This document shows, piece after piece, positions 3,934 through 37,103 of a DNA stretch of 64,000 nucleotides (within the stretch, counting starts at the first letter, position 1; each line of letters starts with the position of its first letter). The position numbers were made by a program, and so were the translations under genes. The stretch covers positions 256,001-320,000 of the forward strand of contig CM000431.1 in NCBI GenBank assembly GCA_000165345.1. The letters run 5' to 3'. The notes below the pieces were generated by a model. That model was given only the letters and a program-made list of their open reading frames with translations, was not told the origin of the DNA and made no database searches.

Positions 3934-4685
3934 ATGGAGAACACTCAGGTAAATAGCGATTTATCGAGTAAGTTTGTAGTAAATTTCTCTCAAATTATGG
4001 AAAAGTTGCCTCGGAATTGGCTTATTGGAGGAGGATTGATAGAGAGAATATTGATATTTAAACCGAAAAATACTAATATATATTACCCTTATTATTAATT
4101 GATTGTTTAGATATTGAGAATTTTATAAGGCTTTCGTACAAACAACAATTGGAGCTTGTTACTGAACAAGAGAAGCAAAAGTTAAACTTATATGCTGATT
4201 ATATTTTGAATTGTATTCCTTTAAACATTAGAAAGTTGAAGATTAGAGAAATACTTGAAGACCAAGGCAAAAATTTAATATTATCAGGTAAGTCTATCTG
4301 TTTAACTCTCTAATAGATTTGTTATATTAACTTTAATAATCCTTCAGAGGATGAGAAAACTGAAATTTTAAAAAAGTTAAATGAAATTGTTAGTATGAAG
4401 TCATTCAAACCAGAATCAATGCCAGTGAACTCATCTTCGGAATCAAAGAATGTAGGACTATACAAGGACCATCTTAAAAAGTCTAGAGTGAAGCTCTTGC
4501 CAATTTCAAATACATGCTATACGATTATTAGAGAAAAGACTGAAGATTTTTTTCCAGGTGAATGTGATGAAAACGCTGATAATCACAACAGTAACGGACA
4601 AATCCAAGATAATATGAACAAAAATACCTTAGAAAATCAAATGTTAGATTCTAACATGATTAGAGATGTGATAAGTTCACTATAA
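3934..4685 (+). CDS. Hypothetical protein of about 182 aa encoded in three exons: join(3934..3967,4111..4287,4348..4685)
   Basis: ATG at 3934. Donor GTAAGT at 3968 and acceptor TTTAG at 4110. Second donor GTAAGT at 4288 and acceptor CTTCAG at 4347. Exon phases are consistent (1 nt + 2 nt at intron 1, 1 nt + 2 nt at intron 2). The third exon ends at the stop of track ORF 4395..4685. The spliced product reads MENTQVNSDLS-N-IENFIRLSYKQQLELVTEQEKQKLNLYADYILNCIPLNIRKLKIREILEDQGKNLILS-EDEKTEILKKLNEIVSMKSFKPES... Without splicing, the first exon frame stops at 4098. Confidence 0.5.
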
Positions 4686-7036: not shown

Positions 7037-7253
7037 ATACCAATTAAATAACAGTTTTTTTTTAAACTTAATTATGAACGTCAAAGCATTGCATGCATGC
7101 ATGCGTTTGTTTTGGTAAACTACTTATTTCAGGAAAATATAATCAAATTCAATATAGCCAATTTATTAATATGCAACTATAAGGAAGCAAATGATAACAG
7201 GTCTAATAAAGCAAAAAGCTAAGATTGCGATTGAATCTTACTCCAGAAACTTT

Positions 7254-8260
7254 CTAAAATAACTTCAAGCTAGAAATTTCAAGGTAAATATAAGTTATTT
7301 GAGCCCGCCAAAAAAAATTATTTAAGCTTACCTGTGGTTTTGTACAGTTTGGGATGACTTTTAAAGCACTCATAATAAGAAGCATTTCTTTGATGTTTGA
7401 TGCTGAAAACCAAATGATTCCATTTTGACCAACACAAATTTCATATGCAAAGTACTTGGAAAGAGCCTCGAGAACATAACTTTGGTCAGCAAGAAGTATT
7501 TGTGCAACAGACTGAGGCACAGTAACTGTCATGCCGTCTTTAATGCATGACTGGCTTTCTCCAGGCAATGAAGATCTATCAGATTTGGAGTAATCTTCAA
7601 TGATATTGGTATTTTTGTAGTTGGAGTTCTTTAAAACTCCTAAATAATTTTCATTATTCGACCATGTTTTCTTCTCCTCTGGTGTGATACATGTAAGTTC
7701 AATTTCCCCGCTTTCAAGGTCTACGTAGTTTATTCTTGAACATACATAATTACCTGGAACAAGATTTGGCTTATTTCTTTTAGTTGCTCCCTCAAATGCC
7801 ATATCAGGAAGGATTCCATCATGCGAGCAGTTGAGCGAAACCTTTGAAATATACAGAGTTGAGTTAATTTCCTTAAGATTAAAATCTTTTCAAGTACAAC
7901 TTACCTTATAGAATTCTCCAAGCTTGTTAATTATCGTTCCTACTACAACGTCTCCTTTTCTTGGAATGTACTAAAATTTCAAATGAAAAGAGAAAATAGA
8001 AAATAAACTTCAAACTTACACATCCTTTAAAAGGCAAAACAATTCTATCATAAGGCCAATATGGTCTCTTGCACTCAACCCCAGCTATCTTGTCTATAAT
8101 AGGATTAATCAATCAAATATTTAATAAGTTGATAAACATGTGAATATATATACTCGCATATTTAAAACTTACTTTTCTTTGATTCTTGAGAATTTATGGA
8201 TATCTCTTCTCCTGGAAGAACAATTCTGAAATCATCTGAAATTTTGTCATTAATATTCAT
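7254..8260 (-). CDS. Exosome complex RNA-binding subunit, Rrp40-like (S1 + KH domains), about 271 aa in four exons: join(7254..7841,7905..7970,8020..8093,8173..8260)
   Basis: ATG at 8260..8258 (MNINDKISDDFRIVLPGEEISINSQESKK). There are three short introns on the minus strand with GTAAGT donors at 8172, 8019 and 7904, and YAG acceptors, of 79, 49 and 63 nt. The exon phases are consistent and join track ORFs 7927..8112 and 7254..7802. The S1-like segment VVGTIINKLGEFYKVSLNCSHDGILPDMAFEGATKRNKPNLVPGNYVCSRI and the KH-like GQNGIIWF motif are typical of Rrp4/Rrp40. The length favours Rrp40. Confidence 0.55.
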
Positions 8261-22954: not shown

Positions 22955-23026
22955 TCCCACGTAGTCTAGGGGCTAGGATACTCGGCTTTCACCCGGGCGA
23001 CCCGGGTTCGATTCCCGGCGTGGGAG
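22955..23026 (+). tRNA. tRNA-Glu (anticodon UUC), 72 nt
   Basis: TCCCACG/CGTGGGA forms the acceptor stem. TAGTCTAGGGGCTAGGATA is the D arm. CTCGG-CTTTCAC-CCGGG forms the anticodon stem-loop with TTC at positions 34-36. GGGTTCGATTCCCGG is the T arm. The ORF track entry 22973..23212 (-) is the reverse complement of this RNA gene. Confidence 0.8.
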
Positions 23027-29973: not shown

Positions 29974-31590
29974 ATGGGAAATACTGCAGTAGGGAATACA
30001 GGAACAAGGCTTAGAGCACCAGTAGATGCCGTAGTAAACACTACTAATAAGAAAGCACCTGTAAGTGAAAAGCCATCTCAACCACAAATACCAAACAAAA
30101 CTTCTGATGTTAAAAAGGGAGGAACTATGGGAGGAGAGAGAGGAAGTGTAACAACTGGTATGTTTGTTCAGAGTGGTAGCGGGACCTTTGCAGAAAGGTA
30201 CAATATTGTATGTATGCTTGGCAAAGGTTCTTTTGGAGAAGTTTTGAAATGTAAAGACAGAATCACTCAACAAGAATATGCTGTCAAGGTTATTAACAAA
30301 GCTAGTGCAAAGAACAAGGATACTAGTACAATTTTGAGAGAAGTTGAGCTTTTAAAGAAGCTTGATCATCCAAATATTATGAAGCTATTCGAGATTTTGG
30401 AAGATTCATCTAGCTTCTACATTGTAGGAGAGCTTTACACAGGAGGAGAACTCTTTGATGAAATTATTAAGAGAAAAAGATTTAGTGAGCATGATGCTGC
30501 TAGAATTATTAAACAAGTATTTTCAGGAATTACTTACATGCATAAACATAACATTGTACATAGAGATTTAAAGCCAGAAAACATACTTTTAGAGTCTAAA
30601 GAAAAAGACTGTGATATTAAAATTATAGATTTTGGATTATCAACATGCTTCCAGCAAAATACCAAGATGAAGGATAGAATAGGAACAGCCTACTATATAG
30701 CTCCAGAAGTTTTGAGAGGTACTTATGATGAGAAATGTGATGTATGGTCAGCTGGAGTAATTCTATATATTCTCTTATCTGGAACACCTCCATTCTATGG
30801 AAAAAATGAATATGATATTTTGAAGAGAGTCGAGACAGGAAAGTATGCTTTTGACCTTCCACAATGGAGAACTATTTCTGATGATGCCAAGGATTTAATA
30901 AGAAAGATGTTAACTTTCCATCCTTCTTTGAGAATTACTGCAACACAATGTTTAGAACATCCATGGATTCAAAAATATTCAAGTGAGACTCCAACAATTA
31001 GTGACTTACCTTCATTAGAATCTGCTATGACAAATATTCGTCAATTCCAAGCAGAAAAGAAACTTGCTCAAGCAGCTCTACTATATATGGCAAGTAAATT
31101 GACAACATTGGACGAAACAAAGCAACTTACAGAGATCTTTAGGAAGTTAGATACTAATAATGATGGTATGTTAGATAGAGATGAGCTCGTTCGTGGTTAT
31201 CATGAATTTATGAGATTGAAAGGAGTAGATTCTAATTCTTTAATTCAGAATGAAGGATCAACAATAGAGGATCAAATTGATAGCTTAATGCCATTGTTAG
31301 ATATGGATGGATCGGGTTCTATAGAATATTCAGAATTTATTGCATCTGCAATAGATAGAACAATTTTGTTGAGTAGAGAAAGAATGGAAAGAGCTTTTAA
31401 AATGTTTGATAAAGATGGTTCTGGTAAGATTTCTACAAAGGAACTTTTTAAACTCTTTTCCCAGGCAGATAGCAGTATTCAGATGGAGGAGTTGGAATCA
31501 ATAATTGAACAAGTTGACAACAATAAGGATGGGGAAGTAGACTTTAATGAGTTTGTAGAAATGCTTCAGAATTTTGTCAGGAATGAATAA
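29974..31590 (+). CDS. CDPK1: Calcium-dependent protein kinase (CDPK1-type): N-terminal MGN myristoylation motif, Ser/Thr kinase domain, junction, four EF hands; 538 aa
   Basis: Kinase motifs [12 protein letters not shown]-like [18 protein letters not shown] and APE are present. After the kinase domain come the junction domain and four EF-hand loops ([52 protein letters not shown]). The sequence matches what I recall of Cryptosporidium CDPK1. Confidence 0.95.
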
Positions 31591-31984
31591 TAATAATAAT
31601 AGAATTGAAATATATAGAGTTCACTACTATTTGAGAGTAGGCCGAGTTCTAAATTATTGTTATTTTCAATAGGGAGGCAATAGTCTTGTTAAGCATACAA
31701 TAGAAAGTAATAGGGGAAAAATAGGAGGAAAGTACGAAATAATTATTGAAAGCTGTAACTGACATAATTTCTTTTTTTTTTTTTTTTGAATAATTCAGTC
31801 GTACCCCTATAATATTGGTTCGAGTAAAATCCAAGGGGTTAATATATGATTTAGAAGTTCCACTATTGTACTAGAATGCAAATTAACAATCAAATAATAA
31901 CATATATCAATACAAAATAGTGTTCTTGGATTTTTTTTTGGGAGAGAACTCCCCCTTTTTTACTGATTACAGGGATATTCTTTA

Positions 31985-32740
31985 TTATTGCATAGGTTCT
32001 GTGCTTTGGCTATCATTTGGTTTTTGTTCTTGCTCTGATTCTTTCACAACTTGGTCGTTATCTTCCTTATATCCTCTTTTCTTTTCACTATAGAAATAAA
32101 ACTATTCATATTAAGACTAAATAATACGTAGACTTACGCTAATTTCTTAATGTTATCAGCTCCTTCTTGAGAACACATTCCTGGAATTTGCACCATTTCT
32201 GGCATTTGGTATCTGAAATTGAGAATTAAGAAAATAAAGTAAAAAAGTTAATTATTAGTTTAATTCAGTGCTTAAAGGTGATAGGTAACTAATTACTTAC
32301 ATGTCATTTACTTCCTGTATTGGTTTCTCAATGGTTGTTCCTTGCCCTTCGAAAGTCTGAGAAAAAAAATGTTAACTAAATTCATAAAATAAAACAAATA
32401 AACTTACATCCTCAGCCTTGTTTTTTGTCTTGGCTCTAAAATAAAAATATGTTTTATTGAAGATTATGTTTAGCTTTAATCTATAAATGCAATAATACTT
32501 ACCTCGCTGCTGCCTCATGCACTAATGGTAAGGGTACTCCTCTGAAAGATAATTAATAGAGGGAAATAAGAAGCAAAATAGTTAAGTTCTAGCTCAATCT
32601 AATGGTCTTTTGCTAAAAAGATCCTTTCCTCATATTAATATTTCTATAATCCTTTTTATTGTGGAAGAATTTTGCCTTGACGATTTGAAAAGAATCTTAA
32701 TTTAGAATTGAGACCAAAGATGAACTTACTTTAAATACAT
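31985..32740 (-). CDS. Small intron-rich gene, absent from the ORF track. Exons on the minus strand are 32740..32730, 32541..32503, 32435..32408, 32356..32301 and 32212..32134 (stop TAA at 32136..32134). Alternatively the last exon ends at 32138 and a sixth exon 32087..31985 follows. The protein is 71 or 103 aa.
   Basis: Four consecutive GTAAGT donors on the minus strand (at 32729, 32502, 32407, 32300) are each followed 51-190 nt later by TTTCAG, TTTTAG, TCTCAG or ATTTCAG acceptors, with exon phases that all match. The product reads MYLK-GVPLPLVHEAAAR-AKTKNKAED-TFEGQGTTIEKPIQEVNDI-YQMPEMVQIPGMCSQEGADNIKKLA(*). The stop codon overlaps a fifth GTAAGT (GCG|TAAGTC), and a TTTCTATAG acceptor 50 nt downstream gives an in-frame Lys/Glu-rich extension ending PMQ*. 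No family was recognised. Confidence 0.4.
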
Positions 32741-33072
32741 TCTTAAAGAATTTAATTGTGAAATTCACTGTTGATAAATAAAACGTTGTATTTCTTTAAA
32801 TTGGAATAATTTCTTTGTGATGAATCGCGTTACATGTTAATTTTTTATATCTATAAAAGAGATTTTCCCGCCAAAAGTCCGGCGCTGATTATTGTTGAAG
32901 TTAAAAAGTGGAATAAGTTGATGAATAGAGGAAAGAGCTTGTATGGTAATATTGTGAGGTTTGAAAGGGAACCTTTTGGAACTTTTGTGACTTGAAATAG
33001 GGTCCTTTTTTGAATGAGGAGAATTAGGTGATGGTAGTTTTTTTTTTTGAATAATTTGTACAAAGATTGGAA

Positions 33073-33567
33073 ATGGCAAGTAATTGGGAAGATAGTTTGA
33101 ATCCATATTCATTGCTTGGGGTAAAGAGGGATGCATCTGAGCGTGATATTAGGCTTGCATTCTTGAGGTTAGTTAGAAAATTTCATCCTGATAAGAATAT
33201 TTCTGAGCTGAACCAAGAAAAAGATACGCAAATAGCGAATAATGGAGAACAAGGAGATCACAACAGTCGTATAACTGTGAAATATCATGCATTATATGAT
33301 GCTTATTGCATTTTAAAAGACCCAGAAAAAAGGAAGGAATATGATTTGTCTGCTTTTAATGAATCTCTGAGTAATTATAATAGTATGATTTGGCATAAAT
33401 CTGTGAATCTTGAGGAACTTGAATATATGGATGAAGATGGGAAGGAGGTTTTTGCTTATTTTTGTAGATGCGGAGGGTTGATCTTTTTAGAGAAGAAGCA
33501 TATTGAAGAGGGTTACAATTTGTTTTCTTGCGATGGTTGTTCCTCGAAGATAATGATAACTTTTTAA
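33073..33567 (+). CDS. DPH4: DnaJ (J-domain) plus CSL-type zinc finger protein, diphthamide biosynthesis protein 4 (DPH4/DNAJC24-like), 164 aa
   Basis: J domain YSLLGVKRDASERDIRLAFLRLVRKFHPDKN. C-terminal DPH-type metal-binding domain FAYFCRCGGLIFLEKKHIEEGYNLFSCDGCSSKI. The track starts the ORF at a TTG (33067). The first ATG is 33073. Confidence 0.75.
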   Translation: MASNWEDSLNPYSLLGVKRDASERDIRLAFLRLVRKFHPDKNISELNQEKDTQIANNGEQGDHNSRITVKYHALYDAYCILKDPEKRKEYDLSAFNESLSNYNSMIWHKSVNLEELEYMDEDGKEVFAYFCRCGGLIFLEKKHIEEGYNLFSCDGCSSKIMITF

Positions 33568-34982: not shown

Positions 34983-37103
34983 ATGGAGAATATTCCATTA
35001 CTTAAATCAGTTGAAAACAAGGATCCATCATTAAATTGGAATATTGATGTTTCAGCTGAGCTTGAAAAGTATTTATCAGCAATAGAGCTACTAGATGAGG
35101 ATATGAATTATAGTCAAAGTACAGAAGCTAATGGTTATGGATATAATAATGAAAATATTACTAGCAATAATGGGAGTTATATGCAAATGTTTAATTTTGT
35201 TGAAGCTGCTTTAATTATTCAAAACTCAACAAGCCTATATTCAAAGAAAATAGAGCATCTACATTCATTGGTATTTGACGCATTTCATTTATTATCTACA
35301 GGAAAATCTCAATTAAATGATGGAAAAATTGGACATGACGAACATACAAATTCTTCAAATCAGCTTGCAAATAAGAATAACATAGCAGAAAAAAATACAG
35401 CATTCTTAATGTCTAATATGGTTTCAGTACCTATCAATTTACTTCAGCCAGGGAGAAATATAAATTTGCAATTTGAACAGTTTGGAAATAACAGTTTGAA
35501 TGACGATATTTCAGCAAAGTATTCTTCTTACTCTTCTTATATAGGAGTTTCCAGTTTGGGAAACAGCATTTCTTTGCCTCAATATAGAATAGATACATCT
35601 TCAAATACCCTTTTTTTGGATGAAGCTGATTTGGGCTACTTTACTTCAAATGATTCAGTTGTAGAGCATGAATATTTGGGTGATATGTTTGCAGAAAATG
35701 GCATGGACTATGACAGTTTCCAGAAAGAAGATCAAGACCATGAACTACGGCAAAATGATGAAGTTTACGATGATGATATGGTAGTGAATGAAGATAATGG
35801 ACCTCTTGGGGCCGAGCTTGATGAGATTGAAATAGAAAGCCAGGATTACATTGAAAATTTTGACAATAAAGAAAACGAGTTATTAGATAATATGGATGAA
35901 AAGGGAAAGAAGGATGTTAAGAGCTCTGCTGGAGGACGTAGGAATAAAAACAAGGAAGACTATTGGGTGTTTATGGATGAACATATGAAACTTGGTAAAG
36001 ATAAACCATTGAAGCCTGGCAGAACTTATAAGATCCCATCTAGAAACTATACAATCTCTTTAGAAAACTTATCTCAAAAGGAAGATATATTGGATTTTAT
36101 TGATATTTATAGTTTAAGTTCCTATTTTATGGGTTTAACTAAAATTGAGGGGGAAAAATATAAGCTTGGTAGTCAAAAATTACCATTTTTCTCAGATTTG
36201 AAACCTCCAAAGCTAAGTGTTGAAAGACTTTTGACATTTGATGACCCTGATTATGACTATTTGAGATTATTAGAACCAGAACTTAACAAAAGTGCCTCCA
36301 GTTGGAAAAAATATCATTCCAAGGTATTCTTTGAAAGTATGGATAAGAAAAGGAGAGAATTATTAAATTCTGGTTCAGGCAATGATAATGACCAGGAAAC
36401 TTCAGAATTTAATGATCTTGGGATGGGCGAAATTTCTGAATACTATCTTGAACAAACTCAAGATGTTCTTTCGGATCCTGAATTGCCTTTGGATCCTATA
36501 GAAGATCATATCCAAGACGATGAAAACTTGATTGAAGGAACACAAAATCAAGAGGAGCAGATAATTAGTGACTCAAATTTGGTAGATATTATAGATTTTG
36601 AACAGAACTTGTCGGAGTTACACACCAGAATTAATACATGGACTGGCTATGTAGAGCCATTATTACAAGCTCAAAACTCTAGACCTGAATTCAACATTCA
36701 TGAAGAAGGGAAAATGATTATTGAAAGGATGAAAAAGTTCAACATTATGGAACAGCCCATAAGGTTTGAAGAAGTGACTAATGGGTTTTCTAAGTGGCAA
36801 GTATGCAGATCATTTCTGGCAACTTTAATGCTTTCAAATAATAGAGAAATAGATATTCTTCAGGAAAACCAAAACGCTATTGAAGAGGAAGCCGACTTCT
36901 TCTCCATAAAGTTGTTAGATGAGGATGAACAGAATCAAGCATTGAATACAAATATTAACAATACTGAGAAAGTTAGTGTAGTAAATCTTGATTTTCCAAA
37001 AAAGAAAAAGACAAAGAAAGACTTTGAAGAAGAAAGCAACGAATTGGAGAACAAATTAGATAAAGGTCAAAGAACATCTAGAAAAAGAGGGAACAAAACC
37101 TAA
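34983..37103 (+). CDS. NCAPH2: Condensin II kleisin subunit CAP-H2 (NCAPH2-like), 706 aa
   Basis: The N-terminal block DPSLNWNIDVSAELEKYLSAIE...MFNFVEAALIIQNSTSLYSKKIEHLHSLVFDAFHLLSTGK aligns with the conserved CAP-H2 N-terminus ([21 protein letters not shown]...[38 protein letters not shown], recalled from human NCAPH2). The C-terminal winged-helix segment VCRSFLATLMLSNNREIDILQ matches VCRSMLASLQLANDYTVEITQ. Confidence 0.8.
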   Translation: MENIPLLKSVENKDPSLNWNIDVSAELEKYLSAIELLDEDMNYSQSTEANGYGYNNENITSNNGSYMQMFNFVEAALIIQNSTSLYSKKIEHLHSLVFDAFHLLSTGKSQLNDGKIGHDEHTNSSNQLANKNNIAEKNTAFLMSNMVSVPINLLQPGRNINLQFEQFGNNSLNDDISAKYSSYSSYIGVSSLGNSISLPQYRIDTSSNTLFLDEADLGYFTSNDSVVEHEYLGDMFAENGMDYDSFQKEDQDHELRQNDEVYDDDMVVNEDNGPLGAELDEIEIESQDYIENFDNKENELLDNMDEKGKKDVKSSAGGRRNKNKEDYWVFMDEHMKLGKDKPLKPGRTYKIPSRNYTISLENLSQKEDILDFIDIYSLSSYFMGLTKIEGEKYKLGSQKLPFFSDLKPPKLSVERLLTFDDPDYDYLRLLEPELNKSASSWKKYHSKVFFESMDKKRRELLNSGSGNDNDQETSEFNDLGMGEISEYYLEQTQDVLSDPELPLDPIEDHIQDDENLIEGTQNQEEQIISDSNLVDIIDFEQNLSELHTRINTWTGYVEPLLQAQNSRPEFNIHEEGKMIIERMKKFNIMEQPIRFEEVTNGFSKWQVCRSFLATLMLSNNREIDILQENQNAIEEEADFFSIKLLDEDEQNQALNTNINNTEKVSVVNLDFPKKKKTKKDFEEESNELENKLDKGQRTSRKRGNKT

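Follow-up and report, generated by a model that had tools for sequence, protein, structure and literature searches.

We analysed a 64,000-nucleotide (nt) stretch of Cryptosporidium parvum chromosome 3 (GenBank assembly GCA_000165345.1, contig CM000431.1, forward-strand positions 256,001 to 320,000; ~30% GC), which we call the window and within which all coordinates below are given. Positions 31985-32740 of its minus strand hold, with a probability of about 0.95, a bona fide spliced six-exon protein-coding gene with a product of 103 amino acids (aa). Removal of five GTAAGT...YAG introns of 50-188 nt yields a 312-nt coding sequence (CDS) and an acidic 103-aa protein. The gene itself is no new find, as at least nine Cryptosporidium species or genotypes already have it in their public annotations. 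Added here are independent complementary DNA (cDNA) and comparative confirmation of the model, its genus-wide architecture, a trivial account of a stop codon that overlaps a donor site, and corrections to the models of several orthologues. Little is at stake for biology at large, as this is an ordinary, if extreme, intron-rich small gene.

The six-exon model, including its exons of 11, 28 and 39 nt, can be recovered by a reader from the raw sequence. On the minus strand, GTAAGT occurs at 32729, 32502, 32407, 32300 and 32137, as found by script and by direct reading of 33100-31700, and each of these five donors is paired with a YAG acceptor downstream. The acceptors of introns 1 to 5 read tctttcag, ttattttag, ttttctcag, caatttcag and tttctatag, with a pyrimidine-rich tract before each YAG. 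Serial GTAAGT donors with polypyrimidine-YAG acceptors had been proposed in an earlier sequence-only reading of this DNA, and every coordinate was confirmed.

The coding part of exon 1 (32730..32740, 11 nt, ATGTATTTAAA) specifies M-Y-L and the first two bases of a K codon. It is followed by intron 1 (32542..32729; 188 nt, phase 2, GTAAGT...TTTCAG), the 39-nt exon 2 (32503..32541), intron 2 (32436..32502; 67 nt, phase 2, GTAAGT...TTTTAG), the 28-nt exon 3 (32408..32435) and intron 3 (32357..32407; 51 nt, phase 0, GTAAGT...TCTCAG). Exon 4 (32301..32356, 56 nt) codes for an invariant TFEGxG motif and is separated by intron 4 (32213..32300; 88 nt, phase 2, GTAAGT...TTTCAG) from exon 5 (32138..32212, 75 nt), which codes for the conserved MP..V.IPGM...IKKLA. 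Intron 5 (32088..32137; 50 nt, phase 2, GTAAGT...CTATAG) precedes the coding part of exon 6 (31985..32087, 103 nt), a Lys/Glu-rich, poorly conserved tail that ends in the stop codon TAA at 31987-31985. Exons 3 and 5 have the same length in all seven species examined. The joined exons form a single open reading frame (ORF) that encodes MYLKGVPLPLVHEAAARAKTKNKAEDTFEGQGTTIEKPIQEVNDIYQMPEMVQIPGMCSQEGADNIKKLAEKKRGYKEDNDQVVKESEQEQKPNDSQSTEPMQ. The peptide stretch AEDTFEGQGTTIEKPIQEVNDIYQMPEMVQIPGMCSQEGADNIK belongs to this 103-aa product, and the peptide across the exon 5/6 junction is LAEK.

The clustering of donor sites is well beyond chance. Across the window, GTAAGT is found 26 times on the minus strand and 7 times on the plus strand, where ~21-23 per strand are expected from composition. 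For five GTAAGT within 600 nt, the Poisson probability is ~2e-6 per 600-nt interval and ~2e-4 for the whole window. There is no ORF of at least 100 aa on either strand in 31600-33060, and a prokaryote-style gene caller missed the gene in a Logan assembly of the same locus. The sequence-only reading had described a genuine multi-intron protein-coding gene invisible to ORF finders, and spliced cDNA bears this out.

That cDNA is a 631-nt contig (NODE_17133 of European Nucleotide Archive assembly ERZ21852397, 7.3x coverage; hereafter L005), which encodes the Cryptosporidium hominis orthologue. Its 103 codons are uninterrupted, and their direct translation is the C. hominis protein. Aligned with the window, L005 falls into six blocks (32768-32730, 32541-32503, 32435-32408, 32356-32301, 32212-32138 and 32087-31713) whose ends are the predicted exon ends, with the addition of 28 nt of 5' untranslated region (UTR) and ~270 nt of 3' UTR. 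The BLAST block at 32435-32408 runs 2 nt further into intron 2 by chance, and the block for exon 4 ends at 32303, leaving out two mismatched bases before the exon closes at 32301. L005 matches every coding exon of the C. hominis genome at 100% identity and has the same junctions there. Because L005 lacks introns and is colinear with the gene through both UTRs, its source can only be spliced RNA. All five introns, the fifth included, were removed in at least one transcript. Splicing at the predicted junctions, which had been put forward as a check on the model, is therefore seen at the predicted bases in a sister species, and the 11-, 28- and 39-nt micro-exons are real.

L005 also gives the outer parts of the transcript. 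Its bases 1-28 align at 32741..32768, contiguous with exon 1, and define a minimal 5' UTR in which no upstream ATG occurs; the transcript 5' end lies at or upstream of 32768. Exon 1 is joined to exon 2 in L005. At the other end, bases 341-609 are colinear with the window down to 31713 and define a 3' UTR of at least ~270 nt (31713..31984). Exon 4 is supported by the sequence and by L005, and exon 2 and all five introns by these and by comparison between species. In C. parvum itself, every intron of the CpIA annotation has RNA sequencing (RNA-seq) support (Baptista et al. 2022; PMC8744675).

For comparison between species, we aligned the window with the orthologous loci of four relatives: C. 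hominis, C. meleagridis, chipmunk genotype I and C. canis. The five GTAAGT donors, the five YAG acceptors and the ATG of the 11-nt exon 1 are conserved in all five aligned species. Intron lengths change by amounts that are not multiples of three, and the sole indel in exons 1-5 is a 3-nt deletion in exon 4 of C. canis. Exon identity to the window exceeds intron identity in each case: 97.8% and 96.2% for C. hominis, 93.3% and 85.2% for C. meleagridis, 82.4% and 68.9% for chipmunk genotype I, and 71.1% and 48.1% for C. canis. The least conserved intron is intron 4, with 58% identity to chipmunk genotype I and 43% to C. canis. The ratio of nonsynonymous to synonymous substitution rates (dN/dS, Nei-Gojobori) over the whole CDS is 0.10 for C. 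meleagridis and 0.16 for chipmunk genotype I, and 0.06 for both over codons 1-78. The coding sequence is under strong purifying selection.

A search with the 103-aa protein, also suggested by the sequence-only reading, returned matches in Cryptosporidium only, the best being the 103-aa C. hominis protein at 95% identity. Orthologues of 103 aa are deposited for C. hominis (CUV04934.1), C. meleagridis (POM82470.1) and C. tyzzeri (TRY52524.1). A profile search over 1.84 billion representatives brought in two further orthologues, cand_038320 of C. andersoni (175 aa) and FG386_002323 of C. ryanae (109 aa). Another profile search, which was word-indexed, contributed CMU_042620 of C. muris, ACR3K2_28580 of C. 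serpentis and a model from C. felis that is garbled. Protein identity ranges from 94-96% (C. hominis, C. meleagridis, C. tyzzeri) down to 41-45% (C. andersoni, C. ryanae). A scan of Joint Genome Institute metagenomes with a 30-mer across the exon 5-6 junction gave zero matches.

The reconstructed exons measure 8/36/28/56/75/325 nt in C. andersoni and 11/39/28/53/75/124 nt in C. ryanae, and the introns of both species match those of C. parvum in position and phase. C. ryanae also keeps the ATG and an 11-nt exon 1, whereas the first coding exon is 8 nt in C. andersoni, as in gastric species generally. The five intron positions are common to C. hominis, C. meleagridis, chipmunk genotype I, C. canis, C. 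ryanae and C. andersoni. Since C. andersoni, C. ryanae and C. parvum share them, the architecture predates the split between the gastric and intestinal clades. The two clades differ at the C-terminus: the gastric orthologues (C. andersoni, C. muris, C. serpentis) carry an extension of ~100 residues rich in Asn, Asp, Glu and Ser in the last exon (in C. andersoni, locus L010, 3106-3430), and the intestinal species lack it.

When the six-exon model is applied to each of the species aligned with the window, it gives an intact ORF every time, with the shared N-terminus MY[LM]KGVPLPLVHEAAA[RK]AK; the frame is intact in seven species under this one model. The model also exposes wrong GenBank orthologue models and shows how to repair them. 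Those of chipmunk genotype I (ELE39_003505), C. canis (OIY81_3239 and OJ252_2432), C. felis (HWI79_3360) and C. hominis 30976 (GY17_00002616, 65 aa) are cut off, frame-shifted at the N-terminus, or retain introns. For chipmunk genotype I (140 aa) and C. canis (102 and 88 aa), the deposited start falls in intron 1 or in another frame, or part of intron 2 is kept. At both loci checked, chipmunk genotype I (L006, 1501-2149) and C. canis (L007, 1501-2065), the six-exon model restores the full-length conserved protein.

An exact-sequence look-up found the identical 103-aa sequence already deposited for C. parvum under four accessions: QOY42442.1 (CPATCC_0031890), KAL5369442.1 (CPHLJ_3g925), WKS76835.1 and WRK31327.1. 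The span annotated in the chromosome-3 records CP044420.1 and CM109963.1 is 756 nt and equals 31985-32740. CPATCC_0031890 and CPHLJ_3g925 are the same gene as the one described here, with identical protein and span and no difference, and the records call the product "Uncharacterized protein". Public annotation dates at least from the C. hominis UdeA01 record and the 2022 telomere-to-telomere annotation of C. parvum. The gene had been described as absent from the ORF track, which is true of the six-frame track only.

We next consider how unusual the gene is for its genome. Introns are found in 10.8% of C. parvum genes, and intron-containing genes have 2-10 exons with a mean of 2.6; the totals are 688 introns with a mean of 99 bp, and 3,865 genes whose CDS averages 1,783 bp (Isaza et al. 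2015; PMC4637869). From these totals, intron density is ~0.1 per kb genome-wide, compared with ~16 per kb for the five introns in the 312-nt CDS, so the exceptional density reported by the sequence-only reading is upheld. The gene id cgd3_925 is not in the supplementary table of Isaza et al. Published C. parvum introns are short and AT-rich (22% GC) with canonical GTAAGT, and those of the small gene are alike. With six exons the gene stays inside the published range; it occupies the far end of the known distribution but is not different in kind. The surrounding DNA had been called otherwise intron-poor, which does not hold throughout. An RRP40-like gene at 7219-8260(-), with 262 aa in a span of 1,042 nt, has introns in the GenBank annotation and GTAAGT at 7904, 8019 and 8172. 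The same is true of a 182-aa gene at 3934-4685(+), which spans 752 nt and has GTAAGT at 3968 and 4288.

Could the locus instead be a chance array of splice-like signals or a non-coding transcript, with annotation simply propagating a prediction? In favour of that explanation, all records say hypothetical, and the protein lacks both a domain and any homologue beyond the genus. Against it stand the five-donor cluster, the existence of an intron-less cDNA contig, a frame that is intact in seven species under one model with dN/dS of 0.06-0.16, exons that are far better conserved than introns, and intron positions common to gastric and intestinal clades. The comparative and cDNA data effectively refute this explanation, and we give it next to no probability. 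Some points do weigh against the reading of the locus as a spliced gene for a small adaptor-like protein. Transcript support consists of one low-coverage contig (7.3x) from the sister species C. hominis, from which the junctions were read. The gene ids cgd3_925 and CPATCC_0031890 are not mentioned in searchable papers. Finally, the idea that the protein may act as an adaptor through its motifs rests on conservation and a low-confidence structure prediction.

A further question is whether the gene makes one product or two. The sequence-only reading gave 71 aa for a five-exon product, which by our count is 70 aa, and added a 33-codon extension reached through a further acceptor. The extension is the annotated, cDNA-supported and genus-conserved last exon. 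The stop codon of the shorter product overlaps the fifth GTAAGT, and the sequence-only reading had seen in this a sign of alternative splicing. Where GTAAGT is the donor of a phase-2 intron, the sequence always reads xxG-TAA, and TAA directly follows at each of the phase-2 donors here (AAG TAA at intron 1, AGG TAA at intron 2, ATG TAA at intron 4 and GCG TAA at intron 5). Because the overlap is automatic, it is not evidence for alternative splicing. The 70-aa form is the expected product of intron-5 retention, and the form in the cDNA is the 103-aa one. We consider it very improbable that regulated intron-5 retention or alternative donor use yields two functional products, a 70-aa core and a 103-aa protein with a Lys/Glu tail. 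Such a 70-aa product is formally possible, since retention of intron 5 brings an immediate in-frame TAA; the exon 6 tail is the least conserved part of the protein, varying from 33 to ~105 residues, and a few putative cases of alternative splicing are reported in C. parvum (Baptista et al.; PMC8744675). However, a TAA that also appears at introns 1, 2 and 4 is uninformative, and the sole transcript observed has intron 5 spliced out. Moreover, the start of exon 6 (EKKRGYKE) is among the best-conserved parts of the protein, with K72, K73 and R74 invariant across the genus, which argues for normal translation of exon 6. Intron 5 shows no coding-like conservation and varies in length from 38 to 111 nt.

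The 103-aa product of the spliced gene has a mass of 11.6 kDa, an isoelectric point of 4.9 and a grand average of hydropathy of -1.09, making it acidic and very hydrophilic. AlphaFold2, run on a six-sequence alignment, gave a mean predicted local distance difference test score of 61 and a predicted template modelling score of 0.24; the model has helices at 8-22 and 60-73, and the remainder is coil. This prediction suggests that most of the protein is disordered, apart from the two short helices (~8-22 and 60-73). Three segments are invariant: L8-x-L10-[VI]-x-E13, followed by A18, K21, K23 and E25; T27-F28-E29-G30-x-G32; and P49...P55-G56-M57...I66-K67-x-L69-A70-x-K72-K73-R74. The protein most likely would be a small binding or adaptor protein that acts through these segments (LxL[VI]xE, TFEGxG and PGM...IKxLAxKK) rather than an enzyme or a structural fold, judging by conservation and the predicted structure.

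No family could be assigned, in agreement with the sequence-only reading. In Pfam, the C. parvum protein has no family (best match RecX_HTH3, E = 0.24, 12 bits against a cutoff of 26), and the C. andersoni and C. ryanae proteins have zero matches. A profile search of the PDB with E up to 10 gave noise only (RNF168 and eL14 at E 0.28-0.6). Neither of the two large profile searches found a homologue outside Cryptosporidium; the sole match from elsewhere (E = 9.5e-4) is a spurious repeat protein. Several known families and motifs were compared and misfit the invariant residues: the C-terminal region of NAC-beta (BTF3; GADS..L..LAE), the VIM motif (Rx5AAx2R), SxIP and RVxF, and ENSA/ARPP19, Sem1/DSS1 and the small subunits of the anaphase-promoting complex (APC/C). 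Rfam gave two chance-level matches only on 31400-33200. One is a weak match, over the full length of the family, to the box C/D small nucleolar RNA SNORD2 in intron 4 at 32237-32298(-), with 20.8 bits against a gathering threshold of 37 (E = 0.71), judged to be chance because it overlaps the donor site and intron 4 is poorly conserved.

Two short linear motifs offer leads only. The PP2A-B56 motif has the consensus [LMFI]xx[ILV]xE, with which the invariant L8, [VI]11 and E13 agree. The SHP box, which binds the Cdc48/p97 N-domain, has the consensus h(x)1-2F/W(x)0-1GxGx2L (PMC7403338); both of its glycines are strictly conserved, and its key contacts are made by three hydrophobic residues, Phe being a main contact (PMC5042407). 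F28, G30 and G32 are invariant in eight orthologues and match the FxGxG core of the SHP box, the intestinal clade has a hydrophobic residue (I, V or A) at +7, and both motif regions are predicted by AlphaFold2 to be non-globular. A Cryptosporidium-specific cofactor that docks through one of these motifs, on Cdc48/p97 via the SHP-box-like TFEGxG or on PP2A-B56 via LxL[VI]xE, is nevertheless unlikely. The protein lacks the hydrophobic anchor that the SHP box has upstream (-3/-2 are E and D/N/Q; an invariant E25 is followed by D/N/Q26 and T27). At +7, C. ryanae has E, and C. andersoni, C. muris and C. serpentis have P. Of the three SHP hydrophobic contacts, two therefore fail. By our own estimate, roughly one in three proteins as small as this would have an LxxIxE-type match by chance, and a helix is predicted to begin with residues 8-13. 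Many motif classes were considered, which makes some match unsurprising. The protein resembles the SHP-box cofactors p47/Shp1, Ufd1, p37 and Derlin-1 in having an invariant F-x-G-x-G core in a predicted disordered region, but it differs from them in that it has no UBX, UBA, SEP or UT3 domain (Pfam found no UBX, UBA or SEP domain) and its flanking hydrophobic anchors are not conserved. Cofactors of this class bind the p97 N-domain and usually carry a second module (UBX, UBL or VIM). The SHP likeness amounts to five residues and cannot count as evidence that the protein belongs to the class.

A fuller proposal, which we regard as quite improbable, is that the protein may be a Cryptosporidium-restricted disordered adaptor docked on Cdc48/p97 or PP2A-B56. 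Under this proposal its expression would depend on splicing across life-cycle stages, because the genus has kept five tiny introns throughout, of which four are in phase 2 and bring an instant TAA if retained. As a genus-restricted, strongly constrained small protein encoded beside a calcium-dependent protein kinase (CDPK) gene, it could be a cheap target for tagging or knock-out by CRISPR (clustered regularly interspaced short palindromic repeats).

The small gene sits between this CDPK gene and a DnaJ/CSL gene. The CDPK (29974-31590, + strand; 538 aa, with Pkinase and four EF-hands by ORF and Pfam) is, by position and length, presumably CpCDPK1 (cgd3_920). It is convergent with the small gene, and the two 3' ends lie ~120 nt apart or closer, as the CDPK stop is at 31590 and the cDNA extends at least to 31713. 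On the other side, ORF and Pfam analysis places a gene for a DnaJ and CSL zinc-finger protein (DPH4-like) at ~33073-33567 and one for the condensin-II subunit CAP-H2 at 34983-37103, both on the plus strand. The order CAP-H2, 200-aa ORF, DnaJ/CSL, small gene, CDPK is kept in the six species whose loci were fetched.

An E2F-like site (TTGGCGGGAAA) lies at 32864..32874 on the minus strand as an exact match, ~96 nt upstream of the cDNA 5' end. The canonical sequence TTTTGGCGGGAAAA also occurs, without a mismatch, at the corresponding point of the loci from C. hominis and C. meleagridis. With one mismatch allowed, the window contains 7 matches where 0.47 are expected. The site is a candidate promoter element in the ~300-nt divergent intergenic region that the small gene shares with the DnaJ/CSL gene. 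Elsewhere, the sole tRNA of the window is a tRNA-Glu (TTC) at 22955-23026 on the plus strand.

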